This document shows positions 20,641 to 37,381 of a DNA stretch of 64,000 nucleotides, piece by piece (positions within the stretch are counted from its first letter, which is position 1; every line of letters begins with the position of its first letter). The translations under genes and the position numbers were made by a program. The DNA comes from an uncultured delta proteobacterium (GTDB lineage Bacteria > Desulfobacterota > Binatia > UBA9968): assembly GCA_963840855.1 (NCBI GenBank), contig CAWJBB010000069.1:32001-96000 (forward strand), written 5' to 3'. Below the pieces are notes generated by a model. That model was not told the origin of the DNA. It made no database searches and saw only the letters and a list, made by a program, of their open reading frames with translations.

Positions 20641-21791
20641 TGTCTCTTCTTCCCTGGCGCTCCGACAGGCCGTCCTTGATATTCTCCGGTTAAGGTATGC
20701 AAAAACTGTATGATCAACCTAATCTCCTCTGCGGTCAGCGTCCTTCCCAACTGAACTCTGATCATCGTCCTCACGGCGTCCTCAAGCGTCTGCGCGCGTC
20801 CATCGTGAAAGTATGGGCCGGTGGCCGCCACATTGCGCAGGCTCGGCACGCGGAACACCTCCCGGTCGCGCGGCGCCTTGGTCACGGCATAGCGCCCCAA
20901 GTCGACGGGGGCGCCGGGGATTTCCGCGCCACTGGCCTCCGCAAAAACGCCGAATTTCTGGTATATGTTGCCGCCGATATTCATTCCCTGATGGCAGGCC
21001 ACGCAGCCGTAGGATTTGAACAGTCCGTAGCCCTGCTGCTCCGCCTCCGTCAGCGCGTGCCGCTCACCGCGCAGATAGCGATCGAAACGAGCATTGGGCG
21101 TCAACAAGGACCGCTCGAAGGTAGCTAGAGCGGCCAACGCGTTGGCTCGCGTCAGGCCTTCGGGGTAAGCGTTGTTGAACCGGGCAACGTAGTCCGCATC
21201 AGCGCGCAACTTAGTGAGGAGCTCCGGCCAAGTCGTGTTCATCAATCTCGGACTCAACAGAACGATCTCGGCTTGGGCCTCTAAGGTTTGGGCGATGCCG
21301 TCCCAATTAAAAGAGGCATTAAATCCCACATTAAAAATTGTCGGGGTATTGCGAGCGGGCGACGAATCGTTGGCAGAGCTGGCACTGCGGCGGCCGTCCA
21401 TGCCGCCTTGGTCTAACGGATGGCAAGCAGCGCAGGATTTCGTATTGTCGCGAGACAGTCGCACATCGTTAAACAACCGTTCTCCGAGTGCCACCCGTTT
21501 CGGATCAAGATCCACGGAAAGCGGAAGGGGCGTAATGGGCTCTTGTGGCCCCGCAGCGGACGAGCTTGAAACCAGCACGCCGATGCGCCAGACCTTCGCC
21601 GGCTGCTGCGCCGCAACCGGCAAGCTAAGCGCGAAGAGCATGGCGCCTAGACCAGAGATCAGAACTCGGATATCGGAGATCGGTTTAACCACAGAGGAAC
21701 AGAGGGCACAGAGAAAGCGCTCCGTGCCTCGGCGGCGAATTTTTACCCTCTGATTTCTGACTGCTGCCCTCTGATCTCCGACCTCTGTCAT
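20637..21791 (-). CDS. Di-heme cytochrome c peroxidase/MauG-family protein with an SBP-derived N-terminus
   Basis: CAACH and CVACH heme motifs, RNTPT, FRVPSLRNV..TGPYFHDG; N-terminus GAMLFALSLPVAAQQPAKVWRIGVL matches the neighbouring SBPs. Confidence 0.85.
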   Translation of the reverse strand: MTEVGDQRAAVRNQRVKIRRRGTERFLCALCSSVVKPISDIRVLISGLGAMLFALSLPVAAQQPAKVWRIGVLVSSSSAAGPQEPITPLPLSVDLDPKRVALGERLFNDVRLSRDNTKSCAACHPLDQGGMDGRRSASSANDSSPARNTPTIFNVGFNASFNWDGIAQTLEAQAEIVLLSPRLMNTTWPELLTKLRADADYVARFNNAYPEGLTRANALAALATFERSLLTPNARFDRYLRGERHALTEAEQQGYGLFKSYGCVACHQGMNIGGNIYQKFGVFAEASGAEIPGAPVDLGRYAVTKAPRDREVFRVPSLRNVAATGPYFHDGRAQTLEDAVRTMIRVQLGRTLTAEEIRLIIQFLHTLTGEYQGRPVGAPGKKRQ

Positions 21792-22776
21792 CTGATCACT
21801 TTATCCGCTCTATACAGCATAGATTGCGCAATTGTTAGGCCGATCTGCTTCGCCGTCTTGAGATTGATCACTAACTCGAACTTCGTCGGCTGCTCGACCG
21901 GCAGATCGGCAGGCTTGGCTCCCTTCAGGATTCTGTCCACGTAATATGCGACGCGCCGGTAGCTGTCCGCGATGTCCGCCCCGTAGGACATGAGTCCACC
22001 GGCATCTACAGGTGCTCTGGTGCTGTACATCGACGGTAGTCGGCTCTTTAACGCAAAGCCCAGAATCCGTCTCCGGTTCGCATTCACAAGCGGACCCGCG
22101 GGAAAATAGAGTCCGTCCGGGCGCTCCTTGTTTAGCGCAGCGAATACCTTCTCGAAACCGTCCGCAGCTCGTACCTCCCAAGGCTGAATAGTCAACCGCA
22201 GTGCACGCGCCGCGACCGGGAGATCCTCTTTCACCTCGCGTACACTGGTCGGACTGGTCGGATCGTAGAGAACCGCCACACGGCCAAGTTTGGGAACCGC
22301 TTCTTTGAGCAGCTCCAGTCGCTTACCGCCAATTTCCGTGCCAAAGCTCGTAGGGCCGGTTACGTTGCCGCCGGGACGGGCAAGGCTTTCAATGTAGCCT
22401 GCCTCGACAGGATCGATCCCACTGCTCGCCATAACGATGGGAATCGTCTTGGTCGCTTTCTTGGCTGCCCCGATCCCCTGTCCCCTACCGCCACGATGAT
22501 ATCAACTTTGAGACGCACCAGCTCGGCTGCAAGCTCAGGGAAGCGATCGACTTTCCCTTCCGCATATCGGTACTCGATGGCGATATTCTGGCCTTCTATG
22601 TATCCCAACTCGCGCAGAGCCAGCCGAATGGCCTCGGAACGGGCGGACTCACTGGCTGGATTGGTATTCGATAGATAGCCTATTCGCGGGACCTTCTTCG
22701 GCTGCTGCGCCGTGGCGGGAAAGCTAAGCGCAAAGAGCATGGCGCAAAGAGCAAGGACGGTGATTTTTCTCTTCAT
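21788..22776 (-). pseudogene. ABC_sub_bind (Trp/Tyr-type) substrate-binding protein, frameshifted near 22470
   Basis: ORFs 22360-22812 and 21788-22432 join into one SBP ending [25 protein letters not shown]; could be a sequencing indel. Confidence 0.8.
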
Positions 22777-22951
22777 ATTTTTCTTTGCCTCTTCCCACTC
22801 GTCACTCGACACATGACACTCGCCCCCCTCACCTTATTGCGCACCTCATTTCGAGCGTTATGTATCACGCGGATGGAGATAAAGGAAAGTGTGATTTACA
22901 CGGCGAAAGACAACAGGTATTCGTCGAGTGGAAAAACCAGATTTTTAGCCT

Positions 22952-23021
22952 GAGATTGAACTGAACGACGCAAAGGACAAATCTCACAGGATTGAGTAGA
23001 TGGAGAATTCAATTCAATCCT
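22952..23021. repeat. 70-bp SBP-array palindrome, copy A
   Basis: GAGATTGAACTGAACGACGCAAAGGACAAATCTCACAGGATTGAGTAGATGGAGAATTCAATTCAATCCT. Confidence 0.9.
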
Positions 23022-23046
23022 GGCAGCGCAGCTTTGTTTTCTTCCA

Positions 23047-24074
23047 TCACTTAATCACCTTGTCCGCCCGCTCCAGTACCCTGGGCGGAAGGGTCAGTCC
23101 GATCTGTTTCGCCGCCTTCAAGTTGATCACAAACTCAAACTTCGTCGCCTGCTGCACCGGCAAATCAGCCGGTTTGGCGCCTTTCAAGATCTTGTCCACG
23201 TAAACAGCCGCGCGCCGAAAGAGGTCATCGAAGTCCGCCCCATAGGACATAAGGCCGCCCTCATCGACAAACTCCTTCTGGAAGTAAATAGCCGGCAACC
23301 GATGCTTGACGGCAAGCTCGACGATGCGCTTTCTTTCGGCGAAAAAAGTGCGACTGCTGATCGTCATAATCCCGCCCACCTGCTTCTGCTTCGCGGTTTG
23401 AAAGGCGCTCTCTAAACCTTTGGCATCGGGTTGAGTTTCTATCTCCTCCAATTTTAGCTTCAGCGCCAGAGCCGCAGGCCTGATCTCTTTCAGTTGGGGG
23501 CTGATCGACGACGTCCGCAGAAGGCCAACTCGGGCGAGCTTGGGGATCGCGTCCTTGAGTACCTCTAGCCTTTTGCTGTTTAGCTCAGTCCCTAAGGACG
23601 ATGATCCAGTGACATTCCCTCCTGGCCGCGCCAGACTGGCAACATGACCGAACCCACGGGGTCCACAGAGTTCGCCAGCACGATGGGGATGGTAGTAGTC
23701 GCTTTCTTCGCCGCTAACGCCGGTGGGTCCCCTGTGGTCACGATCAAATCAACATTGAGACGAACCAAGTCCGCCGCAAGCTCAGCCAAACGCTCAGCGC
23801 CTTTTCCCTCTGCAAACCGGTACTCGATCGCGATATTCTTCCCCTCTATCCATCCAAGCTTGCTCAGCTCTTGTCGGAACGCCTCCGAGAGGACCGCGAT
23901 ACCAGAAGCAGTGCTCCCATCCAGGAAACCTATGCGAGCGACTTTCGCCGGCTGCTGCGCCTCGGCAGACACGCAAAGCGCAAAGAGCATGGCGCCGATC
24001 AGGATTGCGAATTTGAGATTGCGGAGTGCGGATTTTAGATGAACCTGCAAAGAGTCCATTCGAACTCGTTTCAT
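23047..24074 (-). pseudogene. ABC_sub_bind substrate-binding protein, frameshifted near 23645
   Basis: ORFs 23592-24074 and 23047-23451 join via SLARPGGNVTG in a shifted frame. Confidence 0.8.
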
Positions 24075-24116
24075 TGTTTTTCCCTCAATCCGAAATTCGA
24101 AATCCGCAATCCGAAA

Positions 24117-24161
24117 TTACTTAATGACTTTATCCGCTCTCGCCAGCACATTCGGTGGAAT
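24117..24161 (-). pseudogene. C-terminal stub of another ABC_sub_bind gene
   Basis: Encodes IPPNVLARADKVIK*. Confidence 0.7.
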
Positions 24162-24435
24162 CGAGGTCTCCCATAACAACTACGGACAAGCAATAGGCTC
24201 GCGGACGGCGAAAGCTCAGACGCCACGGTTTATCTCATAGTCGAGATATCGCGTCAATTGCCGCAGCAACTTAGGCCGCAAGTAGGGTGCCAATCTGCGG
24301 ACATGTAATGATCTGCGAGATTTATCGAACACAGAACGCTTTTCCGAGAAGTCGCTCGAGTTTCGGGTTCAGAAGGACAAGAAAAGGTAGCTTTTGTGTT
24401 TTCCGGCGAAGCAAAAATGCTTCGCTCGGATAGAA

Positions 24436-24484
24436 TGAACTACCCCGCAGCAAGCTGCGGGGAATTAGACCCATAGAGATTAAA
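24436..24484. repeat. REP/IS200-IS605-end-like hairpin element
   Basis: GAACTA-CCCCGCAGC-AA-GCTGCGGGG-AATTAGACCCATAGAGATTAAA. Confidence 0.55.
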
Positions 24485-24611
24485 TAACCCGGTCCCGCGG
24501 CCTTCTTGACGGCCAGAGCTACGCCGTAATAAGGAATTCTGTAGCATCAACGAGCAGTTGATTGGAGAGTCTATCGTAGGCCTGGAACCCTTGATCCTCA
24601 GGAGGTAAAGT

Positions 24612-25751
24612 ATGGATGCCAGCTCTTTCAAAAGAGTTAAATCCGGCTTTTTTCTCGGCTTGTGGTTGCTCGCCACGAGTAGCCTGGCCGCTGACATAAA
24701 TCCCTCCCTGTTGAAGGCCAAAAAAGACGCTGAGGCCAAAGGCTACATCTTTGAAACCAGCCGCGATGCAATTGTCGCTAAGGCCAGAAAGGAAGGCCGA
24801 GTTAAATCGCTCAGCAGCTTAGAGAACGATGTACATCCTCACCTGATAGAAAGTTTCAGGAAAAAATATCCCTTCCTCGCCGTTGAAATGGTCGACATCC
24901 AAGGACCCGATGCCGCCCAGCGCTTCGTGATGGAAATGAAGGCGGGCACTGTCCGCGAGTGGGACATTGCCAATGTCTCAACCGATTTCTATCCGGAGTA
25001 TCCTCCTTTTGCAAAAAAGTTTGACATTCTTGGAATGGCAGAGCACGGGATCCTGAAGATTTCGCCCAAGATGATCGACCCGCAGCATCGCAACTTCGTA
25101 TCTCTTACGACAGGTATCAGCGTGCCGGTTTACAACAAAAATCTCATTTCAGAGGACAAGGTCCCTAACAGGTGGGAGGATTTTCTTAAGCCTGAGTTCA
25201 AGGGAAAAAAATTCCTGGTCGATCTCCGTCCCCATGTCTTCGCGGCTTTTCCCGCATGCCCGAAAGAAGGCCTTGGCCCAGAGTGGACGATGAAGCTAGC
25301 GAGAGGGTTACGCGACCAAGAGCCGGTATGGTTTCGTGGCAACAGCAGGGGCATTAGCGCGATCCAGTCGGGAGAATATTCGCTTCACTTTGCCATCCAC
25401 TACCAGTCGGTCGTAAGAGCGATGCAGAAAGATCGCGCGGGCGCGCTGCAGCTCAAGATCATCGAGCCGGTGCCGGTCCGGGACTCTAGCTTTGAGACGA
25501 TACTGAGCTCGGCCCCGCATCCGTATGCCGCGCTGTTGCTCCTCGAGCATGAGGCCAGTCCTGAGGGACAGAATTTGGTCGATAAGTACTACCCCCAAGT
25601 AGCGTCGGTTCATTCGCCGGGAAGCCACCTGTCCAGGTTGCTCAAAGGTAAAAAGCTTTGCGTCAACGACTTCGAGACTTTTCACAACTCCGCGAAGTGG
25701 ATGGCGCAGGCGGTCGAGGCTTTTGGCTTTCCCAATGCAGAGGGGAAATAG
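24612..25751 (+). CDS. Extracellular solute-binding protein (Fe3+/family 1-6 like)
   Basis: Signal peptide, [31 protein letters not shown]; paralog at 52904-53971. Confidence 0.8.
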
Positions 25752-25759
25752 ATGCGGCT

Positions 25760-25846
25760 CTCGCGCGCATCTCCAACCGCATCAGCAACCATGTCCGCGG
25801 CGTCAACCGCGTCGTCTACGACATCTCCTCGAAGCCACCCGCCACG
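25760..25846 (+). pseudogene. guaA: guaA (GMP synthase) 3'-end fragment
   Basis: Encodes [29 protein letters not shown], the GuaA C-terminus lacking the final IEWE. Confidence 0.85.
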
Positions 25847-26180
25847 GAAGCCAGGACTTTCCTATCACTTGTTCGAGTTTGCGAATTTCTCTAGGTGAGC
25901 GGCGATCACGTTAGCCGCCAATTGATTCCCCGCAATATTCCAGTGTGTAGTCGCGCGCGTCTACGAGCAAACCCGTCTTGTTGGCCTCGCAAATATCCCA
26001 GCAGTTGCTTCCCGGGTTTAGGATTCTGTGATCAGTCATGATTTCAGTAACAATACTGAAGTCGCTGCCTGTTTTCCAGCAAGCGACGATAGCCCGAATC
26101 GTATTATCTCCTCATTGAGAGCGGAGGCCAGCGGAGACGGGGCGTGAGCCGGCACCTATTCCGGAGGCACTCTTTAAAAT

Positions 26181-27146
26181 CTAAGATTTCGAGTCTTTTC
26201 GCTCTGATCTCGTCAGCCGTCGCCGCGTCTTTTGTGGGCACAAGAAGGAAATCGAATGAGCCCCGATTCTAACATCGATGATTTTGGACTGCTTCTTTTT
26301 CTTGCGATCGTCATTTGACCACGGCTTATCATCAATGTGAACCGGAGACCCGTCCCATTCGATTTGTAGATGTCGGCCGCGTTGCACGGTAAGCTTCGCA
26401 TCGACATTCCGTCCACGTATGCAGTGCGTGAGATATCGGCTCAGTTTCTTTTCTTCTCCGTGAACAAGCAGAACGACCTCGAGCAGACCATCGTTGGTGT
26501 CCGCAGTCGGAGCGAGATCCAGGTTTGGACCGACATATCGTATATTCAATGCCTGCAGCAGAATGTAATCGCCCGACAGATCCTCATCATCCAAAAGCAC
26601 CGAAAGTTTCTTCGGAGTGTGTTTTTCTAGCCGTTCCTTTAGAATGGCGAGGACTCTCTCAATTTCGTCGTCGCGGCGAACATCAGCTGCCAGGAGGGGA
26701 TGGTTGCGTTGCTCCAGCTTCAACATTGTCGAGGCAAACAGACCGAATCCAAAACCTTCAATGAAGTAATATGAACCCCATGGCCCATCCACCTCGCCTA
26801 CGTCAAAGTTGACTCGGCGCGCAGAATCCCAGTCGGCAATGAGGGGGTCTAAAGCCCTTCCGGTCAACCCCAAGCTGTGACCGACATTATTGGCGGTGCC
26901 CAGAGGGAGAATCGCAATCGGAGTCGGATTGCCGACCATTCGGCGGGCAACTTTTCCAACGGTGCCGTCTCCGCCGGCAACAGCGATAATATCTGTGGAT
27001 TTCTTCAGCGCCTTTTTCCAATCATTGTCTTTAGAAGAATAATATTTGACCTTATGGCCCGCGGCCTGGATCATATCGGTAATCCGATCACCTGTAGGCT
27101 GTGAGTCGTCACCGGCGGATGGGTTATGAATCAATGTAACTTTAAT
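26181..27146 (-). CDS. Diacylglycerol kinase family lipid kinase (probable ATT or mutated start)
   Basis: HNPSAG, GGDGT, PLGTANN; AAGGAG RBS 10 nt before ATT-AAA-GTT. Confidence 0.8.
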   Translation of the reverse strand: MKVTLIHNPSAGDDSQPTGDRITDMIQAAGHKVKYYSSKDNDWKKALKKSTDIIAVAGGDGTVGKVARRMVGNPTPIAILPLGTANNVGHSLGLTGRALDPLIADWDSARRVNFDVGEVDGPWGSYYFIEGFGFGLFASTMLKLEQRNHPLLAADVRRDDEIERVLAILKERLEKHTPKKLSVLLDDEDLSGDYILLQALNIRYVGPNLDLAPTADTNDGLLEVVLLVHGEEKKLSRYLTHCIRGRNVDAKLTVQRGRHLQIEWDGSPVHIDDKPWSNDDRKKKKQSKIIDVRIGAHSISFLCPQKTRRRLTRSERKDSKS

Positions 27147-27180
27147 TGGTTTGCTTCTCCTTCGTGTACAATTTACCGCT

Positions 27181-27250
27181 AGGATTGAACTGAACGACGC
27201 AACGGACAAATCTCACAGGATTGAATCGTCGGAGAATTCAGTTCAATCCT
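27181..27250. repeat. 70-bp SBP-array palindrome, copy B
   Basis: Perfect 14-bp terminal IR AGGATTGAACTGAA / TTCAGTTCAATCCT. Confidence 0.92.
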
Positions 27251-27275
27251 GGCAGCGCCGCTTGGTTTTCTGCCA

Positions 27276-28265
27276 TCATTTGATCAGCCTATTCGCTCGG
27301 GCGAGCACCTCCGGCGGAATCGTCAAGCCTATCTGCTTTGCCGCTTTGAGATTGATGACGAAATCGAATTTCTTGGGCCGATCCACCGGTATGTCAGCGG
27401 GTTTTGTCCCCTTGAGAATCTTATCCACGATCTCAGCGGCGCGCCGGAGCATCTCTGAACGATCCTCTGAGTAAGTCATCAGTCCACCTGCCTCAACGTA
27501 CCGAACGTTGGGATACACGCCTGGAAGCCGATTCTTTGCCGCTAGCTCTACGATCCGTTTTTGGTGAGAGCTGAGGAACCCGCCGCCGCCGCCCAACATA
27601 AGCGCCTGAGCACGCTTCTTTGTTGCAGCTTGAAATGCCCTTTCGATGTCGTCAGGCCCTTTCACCTCTAAGGATTGGATCCCTAACCGTAAATACCGAG
27701 CCACAGTCTCTGTCTCTTTCATCGCATAGTCCGCCTCTGGATTGGTCGGACTCCAGAGATATCCCACCTGCGAGAGTTTTGGAATTATTTCCTTGAGCAG
27801 TTCAAGCCGTTTTCCGTTTAGTTCGGTGTTAATAGAGGTCAGCCCCGTGATGTTTCCACCGGGGTGTGCGAGGCTCGCGATGATGCCACGCCTTTCGGCA
27901 TCCGCGCCGAATGCCATTACAACGGGGATCGTCTTGATCACTTTTTTAGCAACCTCCGCCGCTTCAGTCCCAGTGGTAACGATAACGTCGCAGTTGAGAC
28001 GGACTAGCTCGGCGGCGAGGTCTGGCAACCGATCAACCTTCCCCTCCGAGAACCGGTACTCGATTGTGAAGTTCTGCTCCTCGACGTAACCGATCTCGCG
28101 TAAACGATCACGAAATGGCTTCACGTAAATTGTTTCAGTAGAAGCATTGCTCGCTCCCAGAAAACATATCCGCGCCACTTTCTTCGGCTGCTGCGCCTCG
28201 GCTATGACTGCAACAGCAAGTAGGATCACTACGAACAGGATTGACAAGACACCAGCTTTTTTCAT
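27276..28265 (-). CDS. ABC_sub_bind substrate-binding protein
   Basis: Signal peptide MKKAGVLSIL..AEAQQ, SLAHPGGNITG, GTKPADIPV. Confidence 0.88.
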   Translation of the reverse strand: MKKAGVLSILFVVILLAVAVIAEAQQPKKVARICFLGASNASTETIYVKPFRDRLREIGYVEEQNFTIEYRFSEGKVDRLPDLAAELVRLNCDVIVTTGTEAAEVAKKVIKTIPVVMAFGADAERRGIIASLAHPGGNITGLTSINTELNGKRLELLKEIIPKLSQVGYLWSPTNPEADYAMKETETVARYLRLGIQSLEVKGPDDIERAFQAATKKRAQALMLGGGGGFLSSHQKRIVELAAKNRLPGVYPNVRYVEAGGLMTYSEDRSEMLRRAAEIVDKILKGTKPADIPVDRPKKFDFVINLKAAKQIGLTIPPEVLARANRLIK

Positions 28266-28370
28266 TGCAGACACCATGTGCGCATTACGCGGAAGGTAGC
28301 AGAGAAAAGTGACATTTACGACAGAAGGCGAAAGGTATTCCGTCGAGTGGAAAAACCAGATTTTTAGCCT

Positions 28371-28440
28371 GAGATTGAACTGAACGACGCAACGGACAAA
28401 TCTCACAGGATTTAGTAGACGGAGAATTCAGTTCAATCCT
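28371..28440. repeat. 70-bp SBP-array palindrome, copy C
   Basis: Near-identical to A and B; the preceding ~40 bp are almost identical to those before copy A. Confidence 0.92.
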
Positions 28441-28466
28441 GGCGTCGCTGTTTGTTTTTCCTGGCA

Positions 28467-29453
28467 TCACTTGATCACTTTATCCGCTCTATACAGTACG
28501 GACTGCGGGATGGTCAGGCCGATCTGCTTGGCAGCTTTAAGATTAATGATGAACTCGAATTTCGTCGGTTGCTCGACTGGGAGATCAGCGGGCTTGGCGC
28601 CTTTCAATATCTTGTCGACATACGTCGCGGCGCGGCGGAACAATTCGGGATAGTTCGTGCCGTAGGTCATGAGTCCGCCGGCGTCGACATATTCCGGCCT
28701 GGCATAGGCCGCCGGCAGCCGATGCTTTGCCGCAAGGTCGACAACTTGTTGGCGCTGGAGATTGAGGATGGGATTCCCCAGCACCAGAAGCGCATGGGCG
28801 CGCCCCTTGGCGGCGGCTCGGACCACCGGCTCAATATCCTTGGGATCTTGGACGTCCAGATATCGAAGATAGATGTCGTAGGATCCGGCGGCGAGTACCG
28901 TCTCTCGTAAAACTTGTGCGTCGCCTGGGTTGGTCGAATTGCCGATGATAGCCACACGCGAAAGTTTGGGAACGATCTCTTTCAGGAGCTCCAGTTGTTT
29001 GCCGCTCATCTCCGGTGCCAGAGCCGCCAATCCAGTGATGTTCCCGCCAGGTTTCGCCAGACTGGCGATGAACCCGTTGCCGACGGGATCGGTATCTTGC
29101 CCCATGACGATCGGTATCGTAGAAGTTGCTTCTTTGAGGACACGGGTTATCGTCGGCCCAGCGGAGACGATGACGTCGACCTTCAGACGCACGAGCTCGG
29201 CGGCAAGTTCATTGCGACGCTCGATTTTTCCTTCTGAAGAGCGCCACTCGATGATGATGTTCTTACCTTCAATGTACCCGATCTCGCGGAGACCTTGGCG
29301 GAAGCCTTCGATGCGAGCGGTCATAGCAGAAGCAGGCGCGTCGAGCTGAAATCCTATACGCGGGACCTTCGCCGACTGCTGCGCCTCGGCTATCAACACA
29401 ACACCGAGCAGCGTCACTGCAACCAAGATTAACGACCAACGAGCTTTGATCAT
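28467..29453 (-). CDS. ABC_sub_bind substrate-binding protein
   Basis: Intact 328 aa with the same family motifs. Confidence 0.9.
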   Translation of the reverse strand: MIKARWSLILVAVTLLGVVLIAEAQQSAKVPRIGFQLDAPASAMTARIEGFRQGLREIGYIEGKNIIIEWRSSEGKIERRNELAAELVRLKVDVIVSAGPTITRVLKEATSTIPIVMGQDTDPVGNGFIASLAKPGGNITGLAALAPEMSGKQLELLKEIVPKLSRVAIIGNSTNPGDAQVLRETVLAAGSYDIYLRYLDVQDPKDIEPVVRAAAKGRAHALLVLGNPILNLQRQQVVDLAAKHRLPAAYARPEYVDAGGLMTYGTNYPELFRRAATYVDKILKGAKPADLPVEQPTKFEFIINLKAAKQIGLTIPQSVLYRADKVIK

Positions 29454-29565
29454 TGCTCACCTCGTTCATGAGCAAACTTATCACGCTCGCGGTAATTGCG
29501 AAAACGATTAGTTACGGCATAAGAAAAACCCGATTTGTCGAGGGGAAAAAAGGCAATTTCGACGC

Positions 29566-29635
29566 AGGATTGAATTGTACGACGCAACGAACAAATCTCA
29601 CAGGATTGTGTCGTCGGAGAAATTAGTTCAATCCT
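29566..29635. repeat. 70-bp SBP-array palindrome, copy D (more diverged)
   Basis: AGGATTGAATTGTACGACGCAACGAACAAATCTCACAGGATTGTGTCGTCGGAGAAATTAGTTCAATCCT. Confidence 0.88.
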
Positions 29636-29811
29636 CGCGGTTCCCGCGTCCTCGCGGCGCTCAAAGCCCACGATAATTATTCGTAGAGTTGTCTACTATT
29701 GGACAGTAATCCTTACCCATTGGCTTATGTTAAGGTTAGGAATTGAATAACGTGATTCGTTGGACGGCGGCCTACCAGATTCGGAAGGCCCAGCCTTTTT
29801 GGAGAAACATG

Positions 29812-30069
29812 ATGGACAGAACATGGTCGGTAGAAATTGAAGGCAAGAAACACCTGATCGAAGTTGACTATGGCAGGAATGCCAGCCAGACCGGCAAACT
29901 ATTGGTCGACGGCAATGAATTGCAGACTTGGAAGAATGCTCAGCATTTGGACGTCCCTCCAGAGATTACTTTCCAGGTCGAAGGCAAACCGGCCGTCTTA
30001 CGCGCAAAGGGGTTTTTTAAACCCAGGATAGATTTCTTTTTTGGAGGGCAATTAATAGAACAAGCTTAA
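29812..30069 (+). CDS. Small hypothetical beta-rich protein
   Basis: GGAGA RBS; RTWSVEIEGKKHLIEV...KLLVDG. Confidence 0.55.
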   Translation: MDRTWSVEIEGKKHLIEVDYGRNASQTGKLLVDGNELQTWKNAQHLDVPPEITFQVEGKPAVLRAKGFFKPRIDFFFGGQLIEQA

Positions 30070-30250
30070 TTCAAAATTAGGCATACCGGAGGGCGAGTTT
30101 TAAAGCCCCTCGACTGCCTTCTTACCGAGTCTATTCAATATACAGATTCTTAACTGTTCGGTACAAAGGATTTAGCAGGGATCAGCAGCAAGAGGCTAGG
30201 GCCTGCAAACGTGCACGCGCGCAGTCTTTAGCTGCGAGAAAGGGGATTAT

Positions 30251-30841
30251 ATGGAGAGAATTCTTTTTCTTCTTTTCATTCTCTATTCGCTTTTTGTTGC
30301 TTCAATTATCTCAGCTGCTGAGAGTCAAACATGGATGATACGACCCGGCGACAATCTTGATATCATTGCGACGACTCTGGAAATTCCCAAAGAAGAAATT
30401 AAAAAACATAATCCCGGGGTTTTGGAGAACAGTCTCCAAATCGGCCAGAAGCTGAAACTGCCGCTTCGCTCATATGTAGAGGTTAAGACGCTGGAAGACG
30501 AACTGGGCAAAAAAGTTGAGCGGATTGGAAAGCTCGAAAGAAAAAGCAGTGATTCTGAGCAAAAAATCGCTAGCGCAGAATCGCAGTTGCGCTGGCATCC
30601 CGTTTGGCTTTGGGGATTCTGGATTTCTTTCGGCATTATTGCATTTATAGTTTCCGGCGCATATTGGATTTTTCGTCAAACGCACCCGCAGGTTTTTGAG
30701 CAACCGCATGACCGGTCCATCAGAGACTTAAGAGAAAGCAAAATACGAGCGCGGTCATCATTTCCGCACGACGAAGAAGGTGCAAGCAGCCGCGGAGGCA
30801 AATGGCAGCCGTCACTGAAGCCGCTTCCCGCACACCGTTAG
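30251..30841 (+). CDS. LysM domain membrane protein
   Basis: IRPGDNLDIIA...HNP...LQIGQKLKLP LysM domain, coiled coil, TM helix. Confidence 0.8.
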   Translation: MERILFLLFILYSLFVASIISAAESQTWMIRPGDNLDIIATTLEIPKEEIKKHNPGVLENSLQIGQKLKLPLRSYVEVKTLEDELGKKVERIGKLERKSSDSEQKIASAESQLRWHPVWLWGFWISFGIIAFIVSGAYWIFRQTHPQVFEQPHDRSIRDLRESKIRARSSFPHDEEGASSRGGKWQPSLKPLPAHR

Positions 30842-30950
30842 CGGAAACAGATGAAGCTCAGGTGCCAAGCCGGCAGTTGGCGCTCCTCTAACGAACGAGC
30901 CCATCGCAACACAGCGGCCTTCATGACGCAGACTGTCAGAAGCAGCGTTA

Positions 30951-30980
30951 GGAATGGATTGATGGAGAATTCAGTTCAAT
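30951..30980. repeat. Right half of the 70-bp palindrome (copy F)
   Basis: GATGGAGAATTCAGTTCAAT. Confidence 0.75.
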
Positions 30981-31007
30981 TAGGGGTCTGTTCTTGGGGA
31001 AAACATA

Positions 31008-31994
31008 TTAGCTTGCCGTGGCGGCTACAATAACACTTGCGCGATTTCCTAATGGCCTACGGTCGACTTGGCGCCAACCACTCGTTTGAAGCCAGTTACG
31101 AACTTCTTCCTCGCTATAAATATCGCCTTCTCCGGTTCGTAGTAGGAAGGCGCCAGCCATCAGCGCAGCGAACATCGGTTCTGTGTGAGTGGAATTAGTC
31201 CAAAAGTCGACGAGTAACAGCGTTGCATCATCTCGCACGTTTTGGCGGAGACGCCGAAGGAGTACAAGATTATGCTCCGGTAAAAGTAAATGCATCACGT
31301 TGGCGATAATGATAACGTCGTTATCCTGCGGAATTGGATCGGTAAAGAAATCGCCTTCCACTACGCTGATCCGATTCGCAATGGTTTGAGGTATCCGTCG
31401 CCGAGCAACAGCGGCAACTTGTGGGCGTTCAAACAAAATTGCTTCCAAATGGCTTGCCTGCCTTAACACCGCGCTGAGGAAGGAGCCCGTCCCTCCTCCG
31501 AGATCTAATACGCGATGATGAGAAGTAAAATCATACGTAGCAGCAAGCGCATTCGCAGCCTCCACTGTGAATGATTCTACCCCTTCTGAATAAATTCGTT
31601 GCTCTTCTTCTGTGAGTTTGAGATCCTTGAACACGGGCTTGCCCGTCCGGACTGCTTCTTCTAGTTTCATCCACATGGAATAATTCAGCCGGTCCAAGTA
31701 CCGCAAGAGTGGCCGCAAATCTTCGTTGCCACGGCCGCTCAAGAAACTGAGCGCCGCCGCGCTATTGTGGTATCGCCCGCCGTGATTTTCCACAAAGCCT
31801 AACGCAACCATGGCATCAGTCAGTATTCGCATCGTTCGACCTGGCATCCCGATGCGTTGCGTTAGTTCATCCAAGGTAGCCGGACTATCAGCCAGCTGCT
31901 CAAATATCCCTACCTCATTAGCGACGAATAGGAGTTTGGACGCCATGAATCCGCAGCCAACCTGAAATATCGTGTCGGGTTTTACGTCGTTCAT
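31008..31994 (-). CDS. O-methyltransferase (family 2, with dimerisation domain)
   Basis: LDLGGGTG, GDFF, NVMH motifs. Confidence 0.88.
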   Translation of the reverse strand: MNDVKPDTIFQVGCGFMASKLLFVANEVGIFEQLADSPATLDELTQRIGMPGRTMRILTDAMVALGFVENHGGRYHNSAAALSFLSGRGNEDLRPLLRYLDRLNYSMWMKLEEAVRTGKPVFKDLKLTEEEQRIYSEGVESFTVEAANALAATYDFTSHHRVLDLGGGTGSFLSAVLRQASHLEAILFERPQVAAVARRRIPQTIANRISVVEGDFFTDPIPQDNDVIIIANVMHLLLPEHNLVLLRRLRQNVRDDATLLLVDFWTNSTHTEPMFAALMAGAFLLRTGEGDIYSEEEVRNWLQTSGWRQVDRRPLGNRASVIVAATAS

Positions 31995-32108
31995 GGATCG
32001 CTCCTTCCACGAATTCTAAACAGCTTCAGCTAGGAGTATATTCAACGATCGATATGGCCCGGAGCCTAATTCGATTTCGGGCAACCGTCAAGATTTATCA
32101 TTTACGCT

Positions 32109-32128
32109 AGGATTGAACTGAACGACGC
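32109..32128. repeat. Left half of the 70-bp palindrome (copy G)
   Basis: AGGATTGAACTGAACGACGC, preceded by TTTACGCT like copy B (TTTACCGCT). Confidence 0.78.
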
Positions 32129-32341
32129 GTCAAACCAATCCCAAACAACGTAATGTATTGGCGGCCAAGGTGCCGGAATCACATGAAAATCCCAGCCTTA
32201 GGAGGTAGAGACTAGCGTCACTTTGGAAGCGAGACCGTGAGCACCAAAAATGGTCTATCTATTCGCGCCGTAATAAGGTCTTTTTCCTTGCGCGATGAAC
32301 TACCGGAATTAGGTGCACAGGTGTTGGAAATGATCGGCAGC

Positions 32342-33391
32342 CTAGTTTGCCGAGCGTGGCTCATCAAGAAATAACTGTACTTCGCGAAAAAGATGGATGC
32401 GATTCTTCTCCAGGAAAACTACGTGAGTGCCCTCCCCGATTTGAACAAGACGTTTATAGTGGGTGTTGCTGAGTTTGCCGAAGACCGCCTGCGCCCCTGT
32501 GACCGGGGTAACGTCATCCCACTCTGCGAGCACAATTAAGGTAGGTGCCTTAATTTCGGATGGCTCCCATAGAGGCTTCCCGGCAAACCAGTACTCCTGA
32601 GTATCTTGGACAGTGCCGTTTGGAGTGCGCACAACCGGCGGTGTCTGCTTGGCGCCGACTGGGTCGGTGGCAAGTGTGGCCGCAGACCACGCTTCGAACC
32701 AAGCTGCCGGCATCAAGTCTTTTTTCTTTTCTTCCGGCGCGCCAGTTTGAAGACGGCTCCTCGCTTGCTCCATCGTCCATGCTTGATATGCGCCAAGCCT
32801 TGCGGGGCTACCGCTCGCCGGCGCCTTGCGTATCCAGCCCGGTGCATAGAGCACCAGACGATTGACTTTGTCGCTGTTTTGCGTGGCGTATCGGCCCATG
32901 ATCGCGGTACCCCAAGACCAGCCCATTAAATTGAGTTTGGTCACGCCTCGACGGACCAGGATATGATCAACAGCTGCCCCTACGTCCCTAACTGCAACAT
33001 CGGTTCTGACGATGGGTGGATTGTCAGCGGCCGGCTTTTCCATCTCTAGGGGGCGCGTGGAACGACCGTAGCCCCGCAAATCAACCAGATAAACATCGTA
33101 GCCGCGGCGTGCGATGTAATCCATCCACGAGAAACCATCCAAAGGCAAATCGAATGTACTGCTCGCTGCCTGTGTGGTACCGTGCACATAGAGCAGCGTC
33201 TTCTCCCCGCTGAATTGGGCCATGCCTTCGGGGCGCTTATTCCTGACATACAGTTGAATGCCAGGGTCATGCGATTGAATCATATAGCTCTCTGTAACGA
33301 GCTTGAGTTCTGCTTGAGAGGTGATTCCGGCGCAGCCCATCAACACCAAGAACGAGAGGATGCTGACCCGATTCCATTCTGAATAGATCAT
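32342..33391 (-). CDS. Alpha/beta hydrolase, probably exported (gene cassette)
   Basis: HG, DLRGYGRS, GWSWG nucleophile, GTH; starts just after an attC. Confidence 0.85.
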   Translation of the reverse strand: MIYSEWNRVSILSFLVLMGCAGITSQAELKLVTESYMIQSHDPGIQLYVRNKRPEGMAQFSGEKTLLYVHGTTQAASSTFDLPLDGFSWMDYIARRGYDVYLVDLRGYGRSTRPLEMEKPAADNPPIVRTDVAVRDVGAAVDHILVRRGVTKLNLMGWSWGTAIMGRYATQNSDKVNRLVLYAPGWIRKAPASGSPARLGAYQAWTMEQARSRLQTGAPEEKKKDLMPAAWFEAWSAATLATDPVGAKQTPPVVRTPNGTVQDTQEYWFAGKPLWEPSEIKAPTLIVLAEWDDVTPVTGAQAVFGKLSNTHYKRLVQIGEGTHVVFLEKNRIHLFREVQLFLDEPRSAN

Positions 33392-33424
33392 ATGCTCCTC
33401 CTATAGCTCACCATCCATACTGCG

Positions 33425-33497
33425 GCCCAACCGCACATGTTGACCGGCCGCGGCGAGCGAATGCGAGCCAGAGGACCGGTCGAGCGTGGAGTTGGGC
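33425..33497 (-). mobile_element. Integron attC site
   Basis: Minus strand GCCCAAC-TCCAC-GCTCGACCGG...GCTCGCATTCGCTCGCCGCGG-CCGGTCAAC...GTTGGGC; complementary R''/R' and paired L boxes. Confidence 0.78.
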
Positions 33498-33527
33498 GAT
33501 ACGGTGCGCCTGGCTGATGCGTGCTCC

Positions 33528-34679
33528 CTATTCCGATTCGGCACACGACCACTCAAAGAGATTGTCGTACACCAGTCCCCAAGGCGGCCGCAGAAAGCCG
33601 AGCGCACGAACATCTTCGTACCAGTAGCCGAACGGTGAGGATCGCGAGAACGTCCCTCCACCGATCACCCGACAAATCCGCCCCGTGGCAGACTCCGCCA
33701 ATTCTGCGATAGCCGTTTTCGCCTGCGCCGCCCGGCGCCGCCCTTCGTTCCCCTCCTCGACGGCGCGGAGCATGCCGTCGTACGCTTGCTCAATCAACCA
33801 GCCTTCCATCTCGGCTCTCGACCATTCGACCCGCTCGTAGGCGCGCAAAGTATCGCGCCGCCTGACCATGTGCTGGCGCGCCGACGTGACTGCGGTCTCG
33901 ACGACTCCAACGATGACCGAAGCGAAAGCACATTGGATGAATCCGCCGGTGGCTTCTATCCTTTTCAGAAGGTTCCCCGGGTGGGCACTACGCTGGCCAG
34001 GGAAGTTCGCGAACGCCATCGCGTGACTCTGAGTGGCTACCATTCCATGACCATCCCAGGGTGCTGTTAGAGTCACCCCCGTTGTGCCGTCCCAGGGCAC
34101 GCCCCGCATATCGAGGAAGAACAAGTCGGGGGTTGTCTCTCCCTCTGGGAGAGCCGTCGTGATCATATAGGAGGTTATCCCGGAACCGCTCCCGAACTGC
34201 TTCTGGCCGGTGATCAGATAACGGCCGTCGCTGCCCGCAGGGCGCGCAGTCGCCTTCGTCTTCGCCATGTCGCCACCACTACCAGGCTCTGATGTGATGG
34301 TTCCCCACCAGGCGCCTTCTCTCACCGTTTGGAAAATCTCAGAGCGTTGCGCGACCCATGCCTCCTGAGATGGCGGAGGCACTTCCGGTGAGGTCAGCCA
34401 TACAGCGAGGACCGACGGGTGCATCGCACAAACAAGCGCAACGGAAGGATCCCCGTGCGCCAGAATTCGCAGCGTTTCGCAAACGGGACGTGTCGAACGG
34501 CGCAGGTCCTGCCAGACACCGCCCTCCTCGACCGGGACGCCGGTGAGGAGAAACCCGGCATCCCGCAGCGACGCGAAGTCAGCAGTGACCAATGCGCGCC
34601 GTTGCTGGCGCTCAGTGCGCTCGGCGGCAAAGCGGGACGATATGTCCCCCAGATTCTTGAGGACGGTATGGATGTCCAT
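33528..34679 (-). CDS. Acyl-CoA dehydrogenase family protein (gene cassette)
   Basis: ITSEPGSGGD, GQKQFGSGSG, GG.TF; AGGAGG RBS; bounded by attC sites. Confidence 0.85.
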   Translation of the reverse strand: MDIHTVLKNLGDISSRFAAERTERQQRRALVTADFASLRDAGFLLTGVPVEEGGVWQDLRRSTRPVCETLRILAHGDPSVALVCAMHPSVLAVWLTSPEVPPPSQEAWVAQRSEIFQTVREGAWWGTITSEPGSGGDMAKTKATARPAGSDGRYLITGQKQFGSGSGITSYMITTALPEGETTPDLFFLDMRGVPWDGTTGVTLTAPWDGHGMVATQSHAMAFANFPGQRSAHPGNLLKRIEATGGFIQCAFASVIVGVVETAVTSARQHMVRRRDTLRAYERVEWSRAEMEGWLIEQAYDGMLRAVEEGNEGRRRAAQAKTAIAELAESATGRICRVIGGGTFSRSSPFGYWYEDVRALGFLRPPWGLVYDNLFEWSCAESE

Positions 34680-34715
34680 CGCTTCCCTCCTTGCCAATAA
34701 CTCGTCGGTCAAGTC

Positions 34716-34773
34716 GCCTAACGTACCGCTCAGCCGGCGCTTTTAGTGATCGGTCTGAAGCGAAAAGTTAGGC
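34716..34773 (-). mobile_element. Integron attC site (58 bp)
   Basis: Minus strand GCCTAAC-TTTTC-GCT[T]CAG[A]CCG...CGGCTGAGC-GGTAC-GTTAGGC with two extrahelical bases. Confidence 0.85.
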
Positions 34774-34797
34774 AATTCAAAGTCGAGCAATAACCCT

Positions 34798-35841
34798 TCA
34801 CGTTCGTTGTCTGATGTAGCGCAATACACCAAGGTCACCAGCCCGTGAAGAAGCGCGGAACATATCCGCCGCCTCTTTAGCGAACATAACATCAACGTCA
34901 GCCTTCTCCCGCGTCAAGCCCTGCTCGTAAATATAACGTGCTAATGTTTCCAGCGCCGAGCGATTAGCCTCAACTCCATAGGCGAAAGGGTCTTTCCCGA
35001 AGAAGCGGAAGTTTTCCTCGAGATGCCAGTGAAGCCAAGGCAGGGATGTTTGGTATACGCTCGGATCACCAAGATTTTGATAACAATGCCTCTTGGCGTC
35101 TTCAAACGCCTTCATGAGACTTGCGGCGATCCACTGGTTGTGATCGTAGATGTCTCGCTTGATGGCGATCGTATGCATAATTGGAAAGATTCCAGTTTTC
35201 TTGTAATAGGCCATTTCCACATCTCGATAATTCGGGAAAAGACGGTACACATTGGGAGAGCCGTTCAAAAAAGAGGATGGCGCCAGGGAGGTAATCATTG
35301 CATCCAGCTCGCCGGCTTCAAGCATTCCATTGATTGTTTTACCAGGCGGGATTTCTTGAAGATGGATTCTGGGAGGAAGGTTTAGTTCTACTCGTTCAAC
35401 CGGATCTGGAGCTTCAATCCCGCCTCGGTACCAGGATACTTTCGTCAGATCAACACCATACTCATCCTGCAAGATTCCCCGTGCCCAAACTGCAGCGGTC
35501 TGTGAATACTCTGGTCCGCCGACCTTTTTTCCTTCGAGGTCTTTAGGCTCCCGGATTCCTGAGCGCGCATTGATGTAGATGTCCGCATGCCGGAAAACTT
35601 TGGAGGGGAAAACAGGGATAGCAATGTACGGTTTCGGAATGCGTTCGCGTGTGGTGACGTAACCTGAAGTTGAAATCTCAGTTACGTCAAATTCCGAGTG
35701 ATGGAGCACCCGCCAGAATGTTTCCCAAGGCTTCAGTTGAACGTAATTGAGCTCGATCCCTTCAGGTTGAACTGTGCCATCGATCAACGCAGCAGTGCGG
35801 TCGTAATAACGGAGCGCCATGTTGAGGCGTAGTTTAGACAT
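34798..35841 (-). CDS. 4,5-dihydroxyphthalate decarboxylase-like / SBP-fold protein (gene cassette)
   Basis: YDRTAALIDGTV.PEG, PVFPSKVFRH, Y.QTAAVWARG, GIFPIMH. Confidence 0.8.
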   Translation of the reverse strand: MSKLRLNMALRYYDRTAALIDGTVQPEGIELNYVQLKPWETFWRVLHHSEFDVTEISTSGYVTTRERIPKPYIAIPVFPSKVFRHADIYINARSGIREPKDLEGKKVGGPEYSQTAAVWARGILQDEYGVDLTKVSWYRGGIEAPDPVERVELNLPPRIHLQEIPPGKTINGMLEAGELDAMITSLAPSSFLNGSPNVYRLFPNYRDVEMAYYKKTGIFPIMHTIAIKRDIYDHNQWIAASLMKAFEDAKRHCYQNLGDPSVYQTSLPWLHWHLEENFRFFGKDPFAYGVEANRSALETLARYIYEQGLTREKADVDVMFAKEAADMFRASSRAGDLGVLRYIRQRT

Positions 35842-35912
35842 ACACGCCTCCTACTGTTTTCAGGGTAACTCGAGGAAATGTCCGGCGAGGCATTTCCTTA
35901 AATGAATATTTC

Positions 35913-35978
35913 GCCTAACTATTAGGTGAGCCGCCATAGGCAGCGACAAAGGCCGGTCGGCTCATCTCCGGCGACGGC
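35913..35978 (-). mobile_element. Degenerate attC site
   Basis: Minus strand GATGAGCCGACC...GGCGGCTCACC-TAATA-GTTAGGC; R' intact, R'' decayed. Confidence 0.55.
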
Positions 35979-36126
35979 CTCGACAATGAAATCCAAATCG
36001 GCTGCAATATCCACCAGCTACCCCAATTTGTCAACGTTTCGTTTCCCGACAAAAGCCGCCAGGGCGGCGGGTTATCTCCCTAACGAACGGCCGCTTATCG
36101 CGGCCAGACCATCGCAAAGTTCCCGC

Positions 36127-36196
36127 AGGATTGAACTGAACGACGCAACGGACAAATCTCACAGGATTGAGTCGATGGAGAATTCAGTTCAATCCT
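36127..36196. repeat. 70-bp SBP-array palindrome, copy E
   Basis: Perfect 14-bp terminal IR, near-identical to B. Confidence 0.92.
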
Positions 36197-36220
36197 GGCA
36201 TCGCAGCTTGGTTTTCTGCA

Positions 36221-37201
36221 TCACTTGAGCACTTTATCCGCCCGCGCCAGCACGTTCGGCGGAATCGTGAGACCGATTTGCTTCGCCGTCTTGAGATTGA
36301 TCACCAACTCGAACTTCATCGGCTGCTCCACGGGCAGGTCGGCGGGCTTCGTTCCTTTTAGGATCTTGTCGACATATCGAGCGCCGTCTCGGCCCTCGGT
36401 ACCGTAACCGGGTCCGTAGGACATCAGGCAACCATTGTCCACATAATCTCCCCGAGCGCATATCACCGGCAACCGATTGTGGATCGCAAGGTCCGCGATC
36501 AGTTTTTGGTTAGAATTGGCCAACGGGTTCAGCGTCACGGCGAGAGCGGCGCTACGCGCCTTAATTGCCTCTTTGAACGCATCCGGGTATTTGTCGGCAC
36601 TGTTTACCTCCATAGAATAAAGTTGCAGACCCAGTTCCCGTGCCGGCAGTAGGCTTTCTTTCCATTGTGGTGCAGAGCCTGGAGCCTGGGGATCCCACAG
36701 GACCGCAACTCGGGAAAGCTTTGGAACGGTTTCCTTAAGCAGCTCCAGTCGTTTGCCAGTCAAAATCGCCGCAATGTTGGTGATTCCCGTGCTGTTTCCT
36801 CCAGGTCGCGCCAAGCTTTCGACCAGCCCTGCCACAACAGGATCAGTCACACCCATAAAAACGATGGGAATCGTCTTAGTAGCGTTCTTGGCAGCTAGAG
36901 CAGCATTGGTTGTGACCGCCACGAGTACGTCAATCTTTAGATGCACCAGCTCGGAGGCAAGGTCGGGAAGCCGATCGAACTTGCTCCGCATATCGGGAAT
37001 CAATGGCGATGTTCTGTCCCTCAATATAGCCGAGATCACGCAGACCTTGCCGAATGCCTCCAGACGGGGCGCGTCAGCGGAAGCGGAGACAGCCGCCAAA
37101 TAACCTACTCGCGGGACTTTCTTGGGCTGCTGCGCCGTGGCGGGAAAGCTAAACGCAAAGAGCATGGCGCAAAGAGCAAGGACGGTGATTTTTCTCTTCA
37201 T
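36221..37201 (-). CDS. ABC_sub_bind substrate-binding protein (compensating frameshifts about 36985-37052)
   Basis: The segment GKVCVISAILRDRTSPLIPDMRS reads RQGLRDLGYIEGQNIAIDSRYAE in another frame. Confidence 0.8.
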   Translation of the reverse strand: MKRKITVLALCAMLFAFSFPATAQQPKKVPRVGYLAAVSASADAPRLEAFGKVCVISAILRDRTSPLIPDMRSKFDRLPDLASELVHLKIDVLVAVTTNAALAAKNATKTIPIVFMGVTDPVVAGLVESLARPGGNSTGITNIAAILTGKRLELLKETVPKLSRVAVLWDPQAPGSAPQWKESLLPARELGLQLYSMEVNSADKYPDAFKEAIKARSAALAVTLNPLANSNQKLIADLAIHNRLPVICARGDYVDNGCLMSYGPGYGTEGRDGARYVDKILKGTKPADLPVEQPMKFELVINLKTAKQIGLTIPPNVLARADKVLK

Positions 37202-37368
37202 ATTTTTCTTTGCCTCTCGTCACTCGTCACATGACACTCGTCCCCCTCACCTTATTGCGCACCTCGTTTCGTGCGTTACTTATCACGCGGATAGCGATAA
37301 AGGAAAGTGTGATTTGCGGGCGGAAGCGGACAGGTATTAGTCTGAGTAGGAAAGGCCGGATTTCTCCT

Positions 37369-37381
37369 AAGATTGAACTGA
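37369..37381. repeat. Truncated left end of the 70-bp palindrome (copy H)
   Basis: AAGATTGAACTGA, at the same position as copy A relative to a near-identical SBP leader. Confidence 0.6.

Follow-up and report, generated by a model that had tools for sequence, protein, structure and literature searches.

The window analysed here is a stretch of 64,000 nucleotides from an uncultured delta proteobacterium of the Binatia group (GCA_963840855.1, contig CAWJBB010000069.1, positions 32,001 to 96,000 of the forward strand). It carries an array of divergent genes for substrate-binding proteins (SBPs) of the ABC_sub_bind family, punctuated by copies of a 70-bp palindrome-like element, here called the 70-mer, which the original prediction took to be a recombination or cassette boundary or else a conserved RNA element. 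We present evidence that the 70-mer consists of two dif-like core sites, and that these sites and a linked Xer-like tyrosine recombinase are most likely parts of an undescribed recombinase-site cassette system. Below, G000 denotes the source genome and C with a number one of its contigs (the window lies on C69); other genomes and individual loci are numbered as G and L with three digits, and L and R standing alone are the two classes of core site.

Each 70-mer is made up of an L and an R core, separated by 8 bp and each with an 11-6-11 layout of arm, spacer and arm. The L core runs from the outer arm ATTGAACTGAA through the spacer CGACGC to an inner arm, and the R core from an inner arm through the spacer GGAGAA to the outer arm TTCAGTTCAAT. 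The consensus outer arms of the two cores are exact inverted copies of each other, and the more variable inner arms of L and R match them at 8/11 and 9/11 consensus positions. The information content per position is 1.65 bits in the outer arm, 1.79 in the spacer and 0.56 in the inner arm of L, and 0.77, 1.93 and 1.66 bits in the inner arm, spacer and outer arm of R. The six-bp spacers, though mutually non-complementary, are the most conserved part of the 70-mer and are nearly invariant in G000 (GGAGAA in 63/71 R cores, CGACGC in 49/59 L cores). The outer arm is identical at 8/11 positions to the pdif XerD arm given in Table 1 of PMC13141974. The innermost arm bases are TTCA, as against the TTAT of pdif and of the host's own dif candidate, a putative chromosomal site on the minus strand of C46, a contig that also bears a XerD-like gene. 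The features of the array are as follows, in coordinate order.

21788..22812, minus strand: ABC_sub_bind SBP in two frames (22360-22812 and 21788-22432), its leader reaching L of site A
22952..23021, plus strand: double site A, with L core 22955-22982 (spacer CGACGC at 22966-22971) and R core 22991-23018 (spacer GGAGAA)
23047..24074, minus strand: ABC_sub_bind SBP in two pieces, its stop 25 nt from site A
24612..25751, plus strand: SBP_bac_6-type binding protein, cargo between sites A and B
26181..27209, minus strand: diacylglycerol-kinase/YegS-like gene, matched in the C50 array by a 99% copy spanning 1,129 nt
27181..27250, plus strand: double site B, with L core 27184-27211 and R core 27220-27247
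27276..28265, minus strand: intact ABC_sub_bind SBP, an R-to-L module from site B to site C
28371..28440, plus strand: double site C, with L core 28374-28401 and R core 28410-28437
28467..29453, minus strand: intact ABC_sub_bind SBP, an R-to-L module from site C to site D; TrpX-like, far under the NCBIfam cut-off
29566..29635, plus strand: double site D, with L core 29569-29596 and R core 29605-29632
29743..30841, plus strand: R-to-R module with a 108-aa open reading frame (ORF) of no family and a LysM protein
30953..30980, plus strand: single R core, complete 11-6-11 (position weight matrix score 44.1)
31008..31994, minus strand: O-methyltransferase, an R-to-L module laid out as the SBP modules are
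32112..32139, plus strand: single L core (weight matrix score 42.2), left end of an L-to-L unit copied on C85
32342..35841, minus strand: cargo of the L-to-L unit, namely an alpha/beta hydrolase, an acyl-CoA-dehydrogenase-like protein and a binding-protein-fold ORF
36127..36196, plus strand: double site E, with L core 36130-36157 and R core 36166-36193
36221..37201, minus strand: ABC_sub_bind SBP flanked by R of site E and by the damaged L
37369..37385, plus strand: damaged L half with the outer arm kept and the spacer truncated, below the weight matrix threshold

Most of the descriptive claims of the original prediction hold. The five full copies begin at 22952, 27181, 28371, 29566 and 36127, copies B, C and D recur at 1190 and 1195 bp, four copies lie just past SBP stop codons (measured gaps of 25, 25, 26 and 24 nt), and there is no target-site duplication (TSD), with 0 nt at four copies and a 3-nt match at one. 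The claimed 14-bp terminal inverted repeat is perfect in the copies at 27181 and 36127, but the other three have 2-3 substitutions in one or both arms. Likewise, three copies described as partial are where they were placed, but those at 30953-30980 and 32112-32139 are a complete R and a complete L, and only that at 37369 is damaged. The absence of a cognate permease is also borne out, with PF02653 (12 matches genome-wide) absent from all array contigs. Genes of the window mostly point from L towards R, on the strand opposite to the sites.

As had been proposed, the element is far more conserved than the genes that it separates. The five 70-mers of the window are 81-96% identical (mean 90%) and the 23 double sites of the whole genome have a median identity of 83%, whereas protein identity among the three intact SBPs of the window is 46-52%, and identity at their four-fold sites 31-39%; the medians for 18 site-bound intact SBPs genome-wide are 53% and 39%. 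Plain duplication does not explain this contrast. An nhmmer search with the 70-mer gave 71 non-overlapping matches at E<0.01 in the genome, where the element bounds many genes other than SBPs, and a weight-matrix scan of G000 recovered 59 L and 71 R cores, with 0 in the reversed-genome control. These cores are co-oriented within every cluster. As neighbours they form 39 R-L, 34 L-R (28 close and 6 distant), 22 R-R and 11 L-L pairs, and two further cores scored as both L and R. The clusters outside the window add up to about 250 kb, and the arrays lie on contigs of 33-334 kb. A few single cores (C50:103519 and C61:150528 in G000, and L122:3026) have a perfect outer-type arm on both sides of the spacer.

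To locate the points of exchange, we compared 275 L and 304 R contexts and selected pairs in which one flank is at least 97% identical and the other unrelated, obtaining 7 pairs of L with the same left flank, 21 of L with the same right flank, 6 of R with the same left flank and 8 of R with the same right flank. When L sites share the left flank, their outer arm and spacer agree (with one mismatch in one pair) and the inner arm diverges; when they share the right flank, the outer arm differs at about the background rate, up to the base adjoining the spacer. The R pairs (n=6 and n=8) present the mirror image. Polymorphisms through core position 11 follow the left flank, and from position 18 onwards they follow the right one, which brackets the exchange to the 6-bp spacers, not the centre of the 70-mer, and excludes an IntI-type G|TT point for most pairs. 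We also rejected an IS-end junction, in which two inverted repeats would abut across the central 2 nt, since the mapped exchanges fall in the two spacers, away from the centre.

The same picture emerges from longer shared segments and from comparisons between loci. Among segments shared at >=96% identity over >=400 nt, 29 of 53 distinct internal ends fall within 25 nt of a spacer, as against a mean of 1.7 and a maximum of 7 in 500 draws of random placement; breakpoints do, therefore, map to the element. The gain or loss of a unit exactly at an L site was seen once: a 2,045-bp unit lies between two L sites in L183 (G088) and L197 (G067) has a single L, the flanks being identical at 99.9% over 1,276 nt and 95% over 992 nt. 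The unit encodes YciI-like and luciferase-like ORFs (as read from their translations), and its order of L-R pair, cargo and L is the form expected from L x L excision. In the window, the L-to-L unit starting at 32112 has a copy on C85 that begins at the L arm and is 99.96% identical over 2,352 nt, with a left neighbour differing from that of the window. Contigs from four other runs (X1-X4), sharing 26-54% of words, add weak support: an X1 contig departs from the window sequence at 22972, directly past the L spacer of site A; both sides of site D are joined to other neighbours in X1, with weak, short sides of about 30 nt; and a loose end at 28386 in X4, at site C, matches the end of an IS91-family element.

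In relatives, a gene for a Xer-like tyrosine recombinase lies between R and L. In L019 and L041 the gene has an R just before its start and an L just past its stop. We fetched 80 metagenome loci by the recombinase protein alone, without use of the site, and found an L 3' of the gene in 51 of the 55 loci with downstream sequence, 49 of them at 9-10 nt from the last codon; three of the four loci without L have a shortened arm at the expected place, and the stop codon of the recombinase lies inside the L arm in 49/55 loci. Upstream, R is present in 43 of 54 loci with sequence on that side, within 90 nt in 31 and at 686-840 nt in 12, with 5 of the remainder too short and 6 lacking R. The more distant cases displayed have an extra ORF between R and the recombinase; in L076, L081, L082 and L083 a second module layout is seen, with an oppositely oriented ORF of about 130-145 aa some 700 bp upstream. 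Outside R and L, the sequence around recombinase modules varies freely. Together, the breakpoints in the spacers and this site-linked enzyme support the original reading of the 70-mer as a recombination or cassette boundary.

The recombinase has 301 aa, with CB and CAT domains, and scores under the family cut-offs of XerC, XerD, XerA and IntI (71 against a 265-bit cut-off for IntI). Its catalytic set, R154, K178, H246, R249, H272 and Y281, is conserved as in a simple Xer-like tyrosine recombinase, and the IntI insertion is absent. The predicted model has a pLDDT of 87.5, with XerA as the best fold match. The family is a tight one, the 120 listed matches being at 62-97% identity and other Xer-like proteins at about 35-42%; an intact gene lies, for example, at L065:195-1097, and relatives at 38-55% identity include P0121, P0127, P0128 and P0137-P0140. 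G000 itself has one broken, frameshifted copy inside the C93 array, with an intact R upstream and no L after it. No recombinase match was found on plasmids at E 1e-40, or in 251 genomes of the class with a broad recombinase alignment at E 1e-95, the latter search being uninformative for want of a positive control. Some 5 kb away from a pair of recombinase modules in tandem, an integron integrase homologue is encoded at L154:8647-9735 (G109:C23). Phage-type integrases linked to tRNA genes near array ends (C50, C27, C41 and C10) were considered as the enzyme and rejected, being mutually unrelated or distant and with no flanking sites seen.

The exact pattern of the double site occurs in 10 of 121 genomes of the order, and the R motif in 57 of 90 genomes and 19 of 23 genera of the family, with 0 in controls; among 250 other genomes sampled across the phylum the L motif matched once only, a lone match. 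A collection-wide scan also listed a small number of bins with the labels Pyrinomonadaceae, Blastocatellia, Verrucomicrobiia and Actinomycetota, which may reflect transfer or mis-binned contigs, and in bins with Acidobacteriota-type labels (L019, L027, L028, L032, L039 and L043) the double site comes with SBP modules and, in L019, the recombinase. In viral contigs the L motif matched twice, both lone matches that we judged to be chance, and no relatives of the recombinase were found.

We consider it probable, at about 0.72, that the 70-mer is an "empty module" of two tyrosine-recombinase core sites and that the dedicated enzyme of about 301 aa recombines like with like. In tyrosine-recombinase chemistry, directly oriented sites with matching spacers lead to excision or integration of the DNA between them. 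For pdif sites, PMC13141974 describes just this, with two exchanges replacing one module. The site-linked recombinase, itself an R-L module, would be the catalyst here, joining L to L or R to R where the spacers are identical, so that blocks between like sites would be excised, presumably as circles, or integrated, and two successive exchanges would replace the content lying between unlike sites. An SBP module bounded by R and L could not leave alone, and would depart with a neighbouring L-R module, either empty (the 70-mer) or bearing cargo, for example the recombinase gene. Where a genome lacks an intact recombinase gene, its arrays would be served in trans or would now be frozen.

Several observations weigh against this reading. 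The exchange pairs share sequences and are not independent, and their signal is blurrier at a 92% flank threshold. Some pairs depart from the pattern: C50 and C69 have identical left flanks yet are unlike at position 7 of the L arm, and C27 and C65, whose right flanks are nearly identical, are unlike at positions 18, 19 and 22 of R. L183 and L197 are the only filled and empty pair among all loci compared, and no circle junction or reaction was seen in the contigs of the four runs. The insertion point of the IS91-family element falls in the same bracket as the mapped exchanges. Alternation of R and L is not strict (22 R-R and 11 L-L against 39 R-L), though decayed sites may be hidden between some like neighbours. 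Finally, an intact or near-intact recombinase was detected in only 4 of the 90 family genomes (E 1e-60), two of which have two copies each within R-L pairs; the R motif is far wider (57/90), and some genomes, G108 among them, have dozens of sites but gave no recombinase match.

The arrays receive visitors of two kinds. The IS91-family element, which combines a tyrosine recombinase with a Y2 transposase, is inserted at the boundary of spacer and outer arm of L or R, as in L045:4627-7260, L021:13900-16600 and, in G000, C35:32238-34690. With its ends located by their own motif in the 90 family genomes, 16 of 20 distinct ends abut an outer arm. The four bases before its target depend on the site, being ATCC or similar before G at L and GTAC or ATAC before A at R, a pattern that may point to insertion of the recombinase type and not of the HUH type. 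Similarly, IS1202-family elements are described as targeting pdif sites in PMC10132070. The second kind of visitor is seen at R sites not adjoined by SBPs, where YAAC occurs at one fixed offset in 27 of 105 and at any other offset in at most 5; the feature is found at 1 of 202 L sites. Nine of 31 sites with AAC at the fixed offset passed a strict hairpin test, built on attC rules, and several look like ordinary attC, so that integron cassettes appear to end 5 nt from R. Examples ending 5 nt from the outer arm of R are L013:2728+, C27:176933+ (G000) and L045:9831+. An attC-like reading of 30885-30955 in the window was rejected, folding support being absent (z -0.2 and -0.8). An IntI gene of the host adjoins a RIT-like cluster of three recombinases at C1:42288-47012 of G000, and a second IntI fragment lies on C21.

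The least unlikely of the other explanations is that these are divergent pdif-type sites worked by the host XerC and XerD, with the outer arm as D and the inner as C, and with the nested recombinase as passenger or helper. The contrast of conserved outer arms (1.65 bits) with variable inner ones (0.56-0.77) is like that of D and C arms, the R-L and L-R modules have counterparts in D and C modules, XerC-like (C77) and XerD-like (C46) genes are present in the host along with the dif-like site on C46, and the sites far outnumber the recombinase-bearing genomes. However, the innermost arm bases are not TTAT, the inner-arm consensus is like the outer arm at 8-9/11, and a mere passenger would not keep its stop codon in an L arm in 49/55 loci.

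Next in standing, and improbable in our view, is the IS91-family element as the maker or rearranger of modules, by site-targeted rolling-circle insertion and one-ended transposition. The precise insertion at the spacer/outer-arm boundary, and the 16/20 distinct ends found without reference to the site, would suit it; but its end motif occurs once in G000 against 130 cores and in 14 of the 90 family genomes, is missing from the L183/L197 pair, and marks an insertion that splits the entered site, as a parasite would. Less probable again is a selfish repeat of the REP/BIME or MITE type, arisen as an internal-deletion derivative of an arm-recombinase-arm element and rearranged by homologous recombination. 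Its copy number is high, and by eye the middle of the 70-mer looks similar to the stretch preceding the recombinase gene. REP/BIME elements with RAYT have a neighbouring Y1 HUH transposase and dispersed, often inverted copies. Here, the genome has 10 matches to the Y1 transposase family PF01797 but 0 in any array, and the sites are clustered and strictly co-oriented, with no empty junction in site-free SBP arrays. Nor does the array resemble MITEs or DDE insertion sequences: there is no TSD, and the terminal repeats do not move as a unit, the outer arms travelling with the flanking modules and not with the middle.

We regard as more doubtful still an unusual attC hairpin, recombined in single-stranded form by the host IntI in a CALIN-like array. 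The 70-mer does fold as a hairpin (z about -5 for three of seven strands folded) with AAC/GTT in the stem, there is an IntI on C1, and attC-like hairpins abut 27/105 non-SBP R sites at the fixed offset. An attC site is defined by R and L boxes with crossover at G|TT. Folds of the 70-mer have no unpaired spacer between such boxes, and the stems of copies A and D are poorly paired (z -1.3 and -2.0), the spacers being most conserved yet non-complementary. Furthermore, halves occur alone, and a G|TT crossover would place L arm positions 7-11 with the right flank, when they were mostly observed with the left. The original alternative, in which the 70-mer would be a conserved RNA element or a terminator at the 3' ends of SBP genes and the arrays would have arisen by simple segmental duplication, agrees with the position 24-26 nt past SBP stops and the capacity for a hairpin but is largely refuted, as Rfam gave three chance matches far below gathering scores and none at them, the 70-mer is 90% identical against 31-39% at four-fold SBP sites, and the halves assort independently and bound non-SBP genes.

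The cargo between the sites is varied. An SBP-like tail follows 131 of 236 R sites, making SBPs the commonest but not the sole cargo, and the other cargo includes methyltransferases, hydrolases, GAF kinases, SRAP proteins, a DNA ligase, chromate genes and many family-less ORFs (the family scan covered 91 of 181 non-SBP ORFs, hand-picked from the 150 longest). Three cargo proteins of the C50/C77 arrays have a Peptidase_S74 (endosialidase chaperone) domain (L200:317-1519, L201:2886-4298 and L214:14335-15513), and the three SRAP proteins lie in other modules. Of 202 L sites, 50 have a -35-like motif 25-27 nt outside the core, as against 0 of 222 R sites at such offsets, a bias largely due to the homology of SBP leaders.

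That the element drives amplification and shuffling of SBPs, as was first suggested, is borne out for the shuffling, while a role in their expansion stays conjectural. G000 has about 100 SBP-like loci, and of its 54 intact SBP ORFs only 18 end within 90 nt of an R core. C6, C32, C34 and C68 have tandem SBP arrays that are free of sites, and no empty target sites were seen in them by eye. On a quick, mostly unresolved tree, with a "bound" label that missed SBPs with only an L or a weak R, site-bound SBPs do not cluster (15 changes against 15.2 when shuffled).

At 20637-21791 the ORF of a cytochrome c peroxidase opens with an SBP-like leader and signal stretch and abuts the SBP tail at 21788, as if the gene had been placed inside an SBP shell. 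In the adjoining two-frame SBP (21788..22812), X2 and X3 contigs have a 1-nt insertion at 22474. Before two SBPs (22770-22900 and 37200-37320, 91-93% identical) an operon-type start is fused to a module-type leader. Short 7-base tandem or inverted repeats (AATCCGA/AATCCAAA-like) at 24010-24118 have counterparts in the SBP arrays of C6, C32, C34 and C68, where such repeats fill the spacers of these site-free arrays and also occur inside SBP signal-peptide regions.

Known site-specific systems that assemble arrays of accessory genes are few, being mainly integrons and the Acinetobacter dif modules, and the present one looks like a further one. We found no description of the site or the enzyme in the literature, most subscription journals and supplements being outside the scope of the search, and no described example in the host's bacterial family; searches for attC or pdif would miss L and R sites. 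The system also suggests a way, open to testing, in which orphan ABC_sub_bind genes and the rest of the cargo could turn over. More tentatively, and at somewhat less than even odds, we suggest a self-contained gene-cassette system distinct from both integrons and dif modules, in which one Xer-like recombinase, itself borne as a cassette, and two fixed heterospecific sites carry out natural cassette exchange. Such a system might rearrange several percent of the DNA of these abundant, uncultured bacteria of the soil, take in integron cassettes beside R, have its own site-targeting IS91 parasite and help to explain why orphan SBP genes are so numerous in them.

Integrons and CALINs, as described in PMC4889954, likewise have one-directional arrays of gene units with the enzyme gene often missing, and attC-like hairpins do occur inside the L/R arrays. 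In contrast, exchange here is at the central spacers of double-stranded-type cores and not at a hairpin G|TT, the linked recombinase lacks the IntI insertion and the true IntI is elsewhere, on C1, and SBP modules bring a conserved leader with the -35-like motif, with no attI/Pc platform seen. By the accounts in PMC4889954 and 10.1101/542381, the array does not qualify as an integron. The single-recombinase Xer systems (XerA, XerH and XerS) of the latter source share a simple two-domain tyrosine recombinase and a near-symmetric core, but have a single chromosomal dif where over a hundred sites per genome are present here. IS91-family elements with a tyrosine recombinase (NF033538; also 10.1101/542381) are represented by one that enters the L/R arrays at the sites, but it is a rare visitor, and the sites are not its ends.

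The closest parallel is with the Acinetobacter dif modules, which, according to PMC13141974, lie on Rep_3/OrfX plasmids and also in chromosomal islands and depend on host XerC/XerD. Shared features are 28-bp sites with 11-bp arms around a 6-bp spacer, multi-module arrays with two module types and empty modules, crossover in identical or near-identical spacers (deduced here from the co-segregation of polymorphisms) and two-exchange replacement. Chromosomal module islands are a further likeness (PMC12907356). The XerD-type arm is shared at 8/11 positions, but there is no XerC-type arm and TTCA stands for TTAT, so that the pdif arm consensus is not matched. Furthermore, there are two fixed spacers in place of many, the arms are quasi-symmetric, the sites are co-oriented by spacer and a dedicated recombinase gene sits in its own R-L module. 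The location differs as well: about 250 kb of arrays occupy large contigs (33-334 kb) of one Binatia-group genome, and the recombinase has no plasmid match. The use of heterospecific sites for cassette exchange is familiar from Cre/lox and Flp/FRT as an engineered laboratory method. The L/R system is like these in having two incompatible spacers, and its recombinase, small and naturally paired with two incompatible 28-bp sites, would be a candidate cassette-exchange tool.

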